Source: a virus (taxonomy: Duplodnaviria > Heunggongvirae > Uroviricota > Caudoviricetes). Taken from it: 35,817 bases of DNA. How positions within the stretch are numbered: position 1 is the first letter of the stretch; the number at the start of each line of letters is the position of its first letter. The position numbers are program-made. Below, piece by piece: positions 12,001-15,000 of this stretch. The stretch covers positions 1 through 35,817 of the IMG/VR virus record IMGVR_UViG_2703718836_000012; one strand, 5' to 3'.

Positions 12001-15000
12001 TGTTCTCAACCATCTTCAAGCGGATGTATGGAAACAATGGTCACTATGGAATATCAATGTACTGGTGACTTGAAGAAGTAAGATTCGGGGGGCGGGTTGC
12101 CCCCTTATTTTTTGGGATACGAATTTTCAGCAGTGACTAAATTTCATACTGACTTATCGTTGTACGTTCTTTAAAACAGGGATAAAATTAAGATAATTCG
12201 TAAAAAATGGATTGGTGCATATGGTTAAGAAAATCACTTTACTGAGCTTGTCGGTGCTTTTTGCTACACAAGTTGCCTTCGCTGAAAATTCAAACAATTG
12301 GATTGAAGTTACGACGAATAAAGACGGTGCTTTTTTAGTCAAGAAAGGCACGTTTAGAAATGTAAAAGGTGATTCATCTGCTTTGTTCATGTATGAAAAA
12401 ACAGATAAAAAAGTTGAATATTACAAAATTAGTATGAAAAACACAGATTGCGACAATGGATATGGTGAAATAAAATTTTTCTATATGGACGGAAGTTTAG
12501 CTTTTAAAGGTGATTATGTGGCTGATGGAACCAGTGTTGGGGCTGGTCTTGGTGATTTTCTTTGTGGAGTAAGAATCGCGGCGGAAGCACAAAAAAGTTG
12601 AGGAATGGGGGCACATCCTACAAGAAATATGCCCTCCCCCCTTCATATAAATTTCCTCGCCTCTGAAACCAGCTTCATTTCAGCTTCTTCGATTGTCTTG
12701 CGTTCTAACCATAATTTACCCTCCGGCGTAGCCAGGAATTTACGAGCGTGTATCTTTCGGTTGTTACGCTTCGTGGCTGCTTGTGAGTTAGCTTTTGACA
12801 TGTTATCCCCTCCGCTGAATATGCCAGCGTTCAACGTACAGTAGAGAGACAGTACAACGAAAGTTACAATGGTGCAGATAATAGATGACCATTACGTGCC
12901 GTGTTGGGCACATAAGAAAAGGCGGCGCGTAGCGCTTCCGCAGGGTGTAATCCCTTCGCAGGGAGGATAAAGCCTTAGCACGTTCTCTTATCAGGTGATC
13001 GTTATACTCCGGTGATCGAAACCGTGGCAGAGCCGGATTCTTTCCCGATCCGGTTAGTCTTCCCAACATTACGCCTGTTTATTCTCTGCAACGTCATCTC
13101 GACGTGTAGCATCATTGAGCGCCGCACGAAGCGCGGAACGTATCGCTAAGGGTTCAAGTGATGTGTTTAGAGAGTCCGGCAACTCTTTCAGCTTCAAGGG
13201 ATGGCAAAATTTCTAATGCTGTTCGGGCTTGAGCCTGGTAACTACCCGCCATTACGTTGTACAATCCTTGAGCCGATACAACGCAAAGGCGTTTACCAAG
13301 TGTTATCAAGAATGATAATTGAAGATACAATCCGTTAGATTTTTTACGCTAAGTGATTGATTTTCTTAGATGGTGCCGATAATAGGAGTCGAACCTACGA
13401 CCTTCGCATTACGAATTATAAGAATCCGCTTCTAATTCAAAGTATTATCCCATCAACACTGCGCTCACACGTCCCACCACATCAAAACATGTAAAGCCTT
13501 GCAAGCCATTGTGAGGCCTTATGTGTCTCAGTTTTGTCTCATCAGACATAGCAAGTATCGATCAATTGAGACTTGGATGATAGACTTCATGCCTTTCAGA
13601 GCTCATTGATTAAATAAATGTTAAAGTTATTTGTAAAGTACACATCTATAGGTGTGCTGAACACACTTATACACTGGGTGGTTTTTGGTGTATGTATCTA
13701 TGCCGCACGTACCAGTCAGGCTCTGGCAAACTTCACAGGTTTCGTAGTGGCTGTGAGCTTTAGCTTCTTCGCGAATGCAAGATTCACATTCAAAGCATCG
13801 ACTACAGCGATGCGCTACATGTTATACGTGGGATTTATGGGAATATTGAGTGTGATTGTTGGTTGGGCAGCTGATAAATGCTCACTTCCTCCAATAGTCA
13901 CTCTTATCACCTTCTCCGCCATCAGTCTGGTGTGCGGTTTCGTCTATTCAAAGTTCATTGTCTTTAGGGATGCGAAATGAAAATATCTCTTGTCGTTCCT
14001 GTCTTCAATGAAGAAGAAGCGATACCTGTTTTCTATAAAACGGTACGTGAATTCCAAGAGTTGAAGCCATATGAAGTAGAAATTGTATTCATAAATGACG
14101 GAAGTAAAGATGCCACAGAGTCAATTATTAACGCGCTGGCTGTTTCAGACCCGCTAGTTGTTCCGCTGTCATTTACACGCAACTTTGGTAAAGAACCAGC
14201 CTTATTTGCAGGGTTAGACCATGCAAGCGGCGATGCTGTAATTCCTATTGATGTCGACCTGCAAGACCCAATTGAGGTTATCCCTCATCTTATTGAAAAG
14301 TGGCAGGCAGGTGCTGACATGGTGCTTGCTAAACGTTCAGACCGCTCAACTGATGGACGACTGAAACGTAAGACAGCTGAGTGGTTCTATAAATTACACA
14401 ACAAAATAAGCACCCCAAAGATCGAGGAAAATGTCGGAGATTTTCGACTCATGTCTCGTGAGGTTGTGGAGAACATTAAACTGTTGCCTGAGCGCAATCT
14501 TTTCATGAAAGGCATACTGAGCTGGGTGGGTGGTCAGACGGATGTCGTTGAATATGTACGCGCAGAGCGTGTTGCTGGCATCTCAAAATTTAATGGCTGG
14601 AAATTATGGAATCTGGCACTGGAAGGTATCACAAGTTTTTCAACCTTTCCTCTTCGCGTATGGACTTATATAGGCTTGTTTGTTGCAAGCATTTCATTTT
14701 TATATGGTGCATGGATGATTATAGACACCCTTGTCTTTGGTAACCCAGTACGCGGGTATCCCTCCCTGCTTGTATCAATACTTTTCTTGGGTGGAGTGCA
14801 ACTGATCGGGATTGGTGTTCTCGGAGAATATATAGGCAGAATATATATTGAAGTAAAAAATAGACCTAAATATATTATTAAGGATAAGAAATGATTAAAT
14901 CAAATTACATATGCTTTTTTTTGCTTTTTTTTATTGGTTTAACTATTCTTCATTTAAATCAATATACACTAGTATCAGATGACATTTGGTTTTCCGAGAA

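Follow-up and report, generated by a model that had tools for sequence, protein, structure and literature searches.

The tRNA gene thrW is among the most used integration hotspots (PMC7545054), and the Vat PAI, PAI III536 and GI-thrW of ST131 are islands associated with it. As experiments have shown, the phages sharing its attachment core integrate into thrW (PMC3636060, PMC3306764), adjoining proA (PMC3636060), and by the convention followed for the Shigella phages the occupied locus is read in the order proA, thrW/attL, int ... gtr, attR (PMC3306764). Furthermore, laboratory work has yielded tandem integration of SfI and SfX at thrW (PMC3306764). In E. coli K-12, the interval from thrW-proA to yagP'/paoD is occupied by the cryptic prophage CP4-6, the integrase gene of which (intF) is located distally, by a partial copy of thrW.

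The stretch of DNA analyzed herein, 35,817 nt in length and hereafter referred to as the window, carries a fragment of thrW at 13371–13416. The attR sites of the Shigella flexneri phages SfII, SfI, SfV and SfX have the same 46-nt core and a near-identical attP arm on the gtrA side, and the fragment is almost certainly the attR junction of a serotype-converting prophage of the SfII/SfV family that was integrated beside a probably older thrW island of 13.4 kb. As such, it is an ordinary, documented attachment-site scar; this kind of feature and the hotspot are both already known, and nothing about them is new. The left neighbour is the island, whereas the yaiC side has been described at this position for S. 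flexneri. In the tandem SfI and SfX lysogen (Sun et al. 2011, PMC3306764), two integrase-bearing elements likewise stand in series at thrW with an att copy between them; both of these are gtr phages having the same integrase type, whereas the second element in the window is an island with a marginally similar integrase and a core of 20 nt.

The partial thrW copy and its flanks

The features around the junction were as follows.

13371–13416, minus strand: 3' part of thrW, att core and attR of the gtr prophage (exact match to K-12 thrW, the SfI attP and the core of PMC3636060)
13370–13389, minus strand: 20-nt sub-core, ATGGTGCCGATAATAGGAGT in plus-strand letters, right repeat of the island (repeat matches, alignment A2)
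13417–13617, plus strand: attP arm from the core to gtrA, with terminator-like hairpins at 13496–13530 (alignment A1, consensus hairpin scan)

The reverse complement of window positions 13371–13416 (minus strand) reads ATTCGTAATGCGAAGGTCGTAGGTTCGACTCCTATTATCGGCACCA, and this exact 46-mer occurs only once in the window. It is identical to nt 31–76, from the anticodon loop to CCA, of thrW of E. coli K-12 (b0244, tRNA-Thr(CGU)); in the K-12 locus (L033), the 76-nt gene lies at 2872–2947 and the 46-mer at 2902–2947. The 46-mer also matched the annotated tRNA-Thr of E. coli XYEH3934, as well as the same gene in loci L014 and L009, where ARAGORN called it tRNA-Thr (cgt). Shifted by one base, a 46-nt test pattern (13370–13415) matched the window exactly at one position, and 100 dinucleotide-preserving shuffles yielded no match even with up to three mismatches allowed. 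Searches of the window with ARAGORN and Rfam found no complete tRNA, the 3' part alone being present and reading leftward, and no Rfam family was detected in it. Likewise, no further thrW-derived copy was found in the window with the 46-mer or a 25-mer at up to three mismatches. Moreover, the 46-mer proved to be identical to the 46-bp "attP core" annotated between int and gtrA in the genome record of SfI, and the SfI paper prints an identical 46-base core, which is common to SfI, SfII, SfV, SfX and P22 (PMC3636060).

Seven sequences were compared in alignment A1, namely the window junction, the unoccupied site of L014 (where intact thrW and proA follow the island), the attP region of SfII and that of SfI, and three att copies from E. 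coli YZ_2_2. Identity across all seven was confined to window positions 13370–13416, and the block common to attP and attB is hence 47 nt long, the base after CCA also being common. The left flank of the window core corresponded to the DNA 3' of the intact thrW in L014, and the right flank, except for two single-base differences, to the gtrA arm of the SfII/SfI attP; in the unoccupied site, the core is followed on its right by the 5' part of thrW. The junction is therefore a hybrid composed of a bacterial flank, the core and a phage attP arm, and the switch of identity in the flanks at the core edges marks it as a product of site-specific recombination rather than the remnant of a deletion. 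Under the proA-thrW convention, the fragment is attR, the gtrA-proximal att copy. Similarity to the reference prophages begins at 13350–13366 and extends to the end of the window, and in SfII a putative terminator is annotated at the place equivalent to the hairpins at 13496–13530.

An earlier note on this DNA had described the 3' 46 nt of a thrW-like tRNA-Thr gene reading leftward, with gtrA about 200 bp to the right, and had taken the arrangement for the attR end of a prophage. All of this was borne out: the match is to thrW and not to another tRNA, as located by both the 46-mer and the 76-nt gene in K-12, the start of gtrA, at 13618, lies 201 nt to the right of the core, and the two flanks are those expected of attR.

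The gtr prophage

To the right of the junction, the following features were assigned, partly through L016, a locus 99.995 % identical to the window.

13618–13980, plus strand: gtrA (Pfam GtrA_DPMS_TM in L016)
13977–14894, plus strand: gtrB (Pfam Glycos_transf_2 in L016)
14891–16132, plus strand: gtrC-like type-specific gene, 413 aa, DUF6056/GT_STM0557_N, not gtrII (Pfam on L016)
13618–16132, plus strand: whole O-antigen modification cassette (Pfam on L016)
16851–17900, plus strand: acyltransferase (Acyl_transf_3), in common with SfII (Pfam, comparison with SfII)
18673–35817, minus strand: tail, baseplate, head and terminase genes (SfV/SfII-like), then lysis genes and the Q antiterminator (identity to reference phages)

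Up to approximately 31.3 kb, the prophage matched SfII, SfV and SfI at 96–99 % identity. Its gtrA and gtrB were 98.8 % identical to those of SfII (98–99 % across the Shigella prophages), the acyltransferase gene is one that SfII also has, and the genes for tail and head resemble those of SfV. In contrast to the Shigella phages, the window prophage encodes the 413-aa DUF6056/GT_STM0557_N protein and not the product of gtrII (486 aa), gtrI or gtrV, and its Q/lysis region (31.3–35.8 kb), for which phage SKA5 was the best match, is from another lambdoid lineage. Positions 14882–16475 were without a blastn match to SfII. In gtrC and the Q/lysis region, the prophage is unlike every sequenced reference phage, and its identification as SfII proper was rejected on the length of the type-specific protein (413 versus 486 aa) and on the differences in these two regions. 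The assignment to the SfV family in the earlier note accordingly held for the SfII/SfV-like body of the prophage, but not for its type-specific gtr gene.

The type-specific gene at 14891–16132 was unrelated in nucleotides to gtrII, gtrI and gtrV, and its region has a GC content of about 31 %; the exact 413-aa protein is on record in both E. coli and Shigella flexneri. The segment 31300–35817, which includes the Q antiterminator, holins and endolysin, was neither SfII-like nor SfV-like and is common with unrelated HK97-type siphovirus prophages, an instance of mosaicism.

A complete prophage of the window type, 98 % identical and approximately 40.2 kb long, was found in E. coli PM06121 (L034). 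It is delimited by a 46-nt copy beside gtrA and, 15 bp past int, by an intact thrW with proA after it. The island to the left of this prophage is a different one, which carries Vat. An int-xis pair abutting intact thrW-proA was seen in the related loci L034, L009 and L003/L022. The intact thrW and the second att copy, by which the earlier note had proposed to check its reading, were thus found in near-identical or analogous genomes, as were the prophage int and the left repeat of the island; all of them lie beyond the edges of the window and hence outside the reach of its own sequence. By analogy with these genomes, the intact thrW of the source genome would be positioned at the int end of the prophage.

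The thrW island and its terminal repeats

To the left of the junction, the features were as follows.

1–13369, no strand assigned: phage-related genomic island, 13.4 kb, directly 3' of intact thrW in prophage-free genomes (comparison with XYEH3934)
1–1215, plus strand: tyrosine integrase of the island, 404 aa, with DUF6538, SAM-like and Phage_integrase domains (PF00589, phrog_1; Pfam, PHROG)
1868–3733, minus strand: tape-measure/TolA-like protein, 621 aa (Pfam/PHROG)
4045–5076, minus strand: major capsid protein of the lambda gpE type (Pfam/PHROG)
7456–8904, minus strand: SF2 DEAD-box helicase (Pfam/PHROG)
1868–8904, minus strand: island cargo as a whole, including small ORFs (PF03864, PF00270; phrog_16051, phrog_29, phrog_2467)
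10600–11565, both strands: short tyrosine recombinase of 186 aa (plus) and a convergent 136-aa gene (minus) (Pfam/PHROG, comparison)

Over its full length, the island was 99.9 % identical to the segment of XYEH3934 between paoD/yagP' and intact thrW-proA, which is the same interval as that of CP4-6 in K-12. Identity with CP4-6 itself was rejected, as the sequence in common amounted to the 47-nt att block only. Furthermore, the distal thrW copy of CP4-6 comprises at least 46 nt, whereas that of the island consists of 20 nt and a degenerate tRNA-like arm. The integrase ORF of the island, located 12.2–13.4 kb to the left of the core, encodes a protein 52 % identical to the same-site integrase in E. 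coli YZ_2_2; its similarity to IntF was not meaningful (E 0.15), and that to SfII Int was only marginal (23 % over 171 aa, E 0.002).

In the related loci, a 20-nt copy of the thrW 3' end (ATGGTGCCGATAATAGGAGT) forms the boundary between chromosome and island, approximately 140–160 bp upstream of the integrase ATG. This statement covers every related locus spanning the region upstream of that ATG, and the left copy was seen in 12 of the related loci (at 2043–2062 in L001, 9842–9861 in L004–L013 and 32–51 in L018). As revealed by alignment A2, the copy is followed by the island-specific degenerate tRNA-like arm. Since position 1 of the window is the ATG of the island integrase, the left copy falls just outside the window; the right repeat, at 13370–13389, is nested inside the 46-nt phage core. 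With a copy of the thrW 3' end at its far boundary, the island is bounded by thrW-derived direct repeats, and its terminal sequences suggest that the 20-nt sub-core is probably the crossover region of the island integrase. The island thereby displays the attributes of a tRNA-targeting island, namely a tyrosine integrase of its own at one terminus, direct repeats of a tRNA 3' end and variable presence at a conserved site.

The known thrW islands named above share the integration hotspot with the window island, and an island in ST131-lineage strains was about 89.5 % identical to it over 63 % of the length; the cargo of the window island differs from theirs in being phage-like (capsid protein, tape-measure-like protein and helicase). 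Of 5426 complete E. coli genomes, 111 gave any match to the island, and one contained it at full length (at least 80 %). No nucleotide match to it was obtained among 50,697 phage records, PADLOC detected no known defence system in it, and no virulence or defence gene was recognised. A PDB sequence search with the capsid protein and the helicase returned one weak match and none, respectively.

The module of the short recombinase and the 136-aa gene also occurs in an island by tRNA-Gly in other E. coli (L024 8583–9558, 82 % nucleotide identity), and the proteins of the module are found widely in Klebsiella and Enterobacter. The left-hand element, described as a mosaic in the earlier note, may be one to the extent that this one module also occurs at another site. 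Between the genes for the helicase and the short recombinase lies about 1.5 kb of AT-rich DNA (9040–10580), in which an ORF and repeat scan detected no ORF of at least 80 aa and no notable repeats; this DNA could be a decayed gene, a regulatory region or an origin region.

P4-like satellites are distinguished by psu, delta, sid and alpha, and PICIs and cfPICIs by alpA together with a primase-replicase and terS, or by a capsid module with portal and protease. Inspection of the island for such hallmarks gave only an integrase, a single capsid protein, a tape-measure-like protein and a helicase; portal, protease, terminase and primase were not found among its recognisable genes, many of its ORFs being without a match. 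Close homologues of the island proteins, falling in the same 90 %-identity clusters, come from Enterobacter, Citrobacter, Klebsiella, Cronobacter and Serratia. In E. coli, the island is present in many deleted or IS-disrupted forms that reflect multiple independent deletions and IS insertions, and these forms are more in keeping with a cryptic element in decay than with an active one. It is conceivable, albeit doubtful, that the island is not prophage debris but a functional small phage-related mobile element of an undescribed kind, possibly satellite-like, which circulates in Enterobacteriaceae with its 20-nt core nested in the 46-nt core of the P22/SfII type. If this were true, the nested core would bring the island and helper-type prophages side by side at thrW.

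Tandem occupancy of thrW and the order of integration

The arrangements observed in the related loci were as follows.

Island alone with intact thrW: L001, L005, L014, L015, L020 and L021 (at least 99.9 % identity)
Island with the window-type prophage: L016, L017 and L018 (99.995 % identity to the window)
Island with a different gtr prophage, having a YfdI-type gtrC: L019
Window-type prophage beside the Vat island, without the window island: L034

The island and the prophage are two independent elements. The contention in the earlier note that the DNA on the left belongs to a different element, which has an integrase of its own about 13 kb away, was well supported, the island occurring without the prophage in six loci and having a terminal repeat of its own. 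Both the 20-nt and the 46-nt copies were present in L018, a locus from the complete genome CP057802.1, and L009 was revealed to be a deletion derivative in which the left end of the island is joined to an SfII-type xis-int (98.9 % nucleotide identity), followed by thrW and proA. Successive or tandem integration at thrW, which the note had also proposed, was seen directly in the complete genome of E. coli YZ_2_2, where four thrW-derived copies separate three tandem elements (L003 12888–31731, L022 1185–42122). Of these, one is an integrase remnant accompanied by IS3, another a truncated gtr prophage and the third a full lambdoid prophage, and intact thrW-proA follows.

In the history that we propose, the older island would have entered thrW first by means of its DUF6538-type integrase, using the last 20 nt of the gene only. 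The attP of such a phage carries 46–47 bp that copy the 3' part of thrW, and the phage tyrosine integrase would have recombined this core with the chromosomal thrW. A complete thrW would thereby have been rebuilt beside int, at the prophage end that lies about 18 kb beyond the window, and the original 3' part, together with the downstream DNA, that is, the island, would have been displaced to the gtrA end. The window would then represent the middle of a three-copy array consisting of the 20-nt copy, the island, the 46-nt copy, the gtr prophage, intact thrW and proA. The thrW fragment is without tRNA function, and its sole role is that of a recombination substrate for the excision of either neighbour, for which the island or the prophage may at present be competent.

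Because all the 46-nt cores are identical, either order of integration would leave the same sequence; nevertheless, integration of the island first is the more parsimonious reading, since no fewer than two different gtr prophages have been found beside the same island. The opposite order, in which the gtr prophage came first and the island later entered the 46-nt attR copy, seems unlikely. Such a route would be compatible with the laboratory finding that SfI integrated at the attL of a resident SfX (PMC3306764), by which an att copy borne by a prophage is usable by a newcomer, and the partial copy does contain the terminal 20 nt that are all the island needs. However, the distribution of the elements argues against it: loci having the island with intact thrW and loci having it with a prophage were equal in number among those shown (four versus four) but stood at 15 versus one among further similar places, and the two gtr prophages beside the island (the window type and that of L019) are explained most simply by a resident island and repeated arrivals of phages.

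It is very improbable that the island and the prophage constitute one composite element moving as a unit. In favour of this reading, the elements adjoin each other and recombination between the outermost thrW copies is possible in principle; on the other hand, the island without the prophage and the prophage without the island are both found in many genomes, their integrases are only marginally related, and the GC content of the island (about 40–50 %) differs from that of the prophage structural genes (50–59 %). Lastly, that the partial tRNA gene is mere debris of a deletion or of IS-mediated truncation of thrW can scarcely be credited, for although IS elements and deletions are common in the region (L007, L012, L013, L018, L005 and L009), the end of the fragment coincides exactly with the published boundary of the 46-nt core, both flanks change identity precisely at the core edges in alignment A1, and no IS end abuts it.

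The integration of the gtr prophage beside the resident island is of low scientific consequence, as a clean natural case of an already documented mechanism, in which integration into a tRNA gene restores the gene while a partial copy stays behind, with serial occupancy of thrW. For annotation, it fixes the boundary of the prophage at 13370–13416 and divides the window into two independent elements. Furthermore, the gtr prophage carries a type-specific gene outside the named Shigella types, which could matter for the prediction of O-antigen serotypes.
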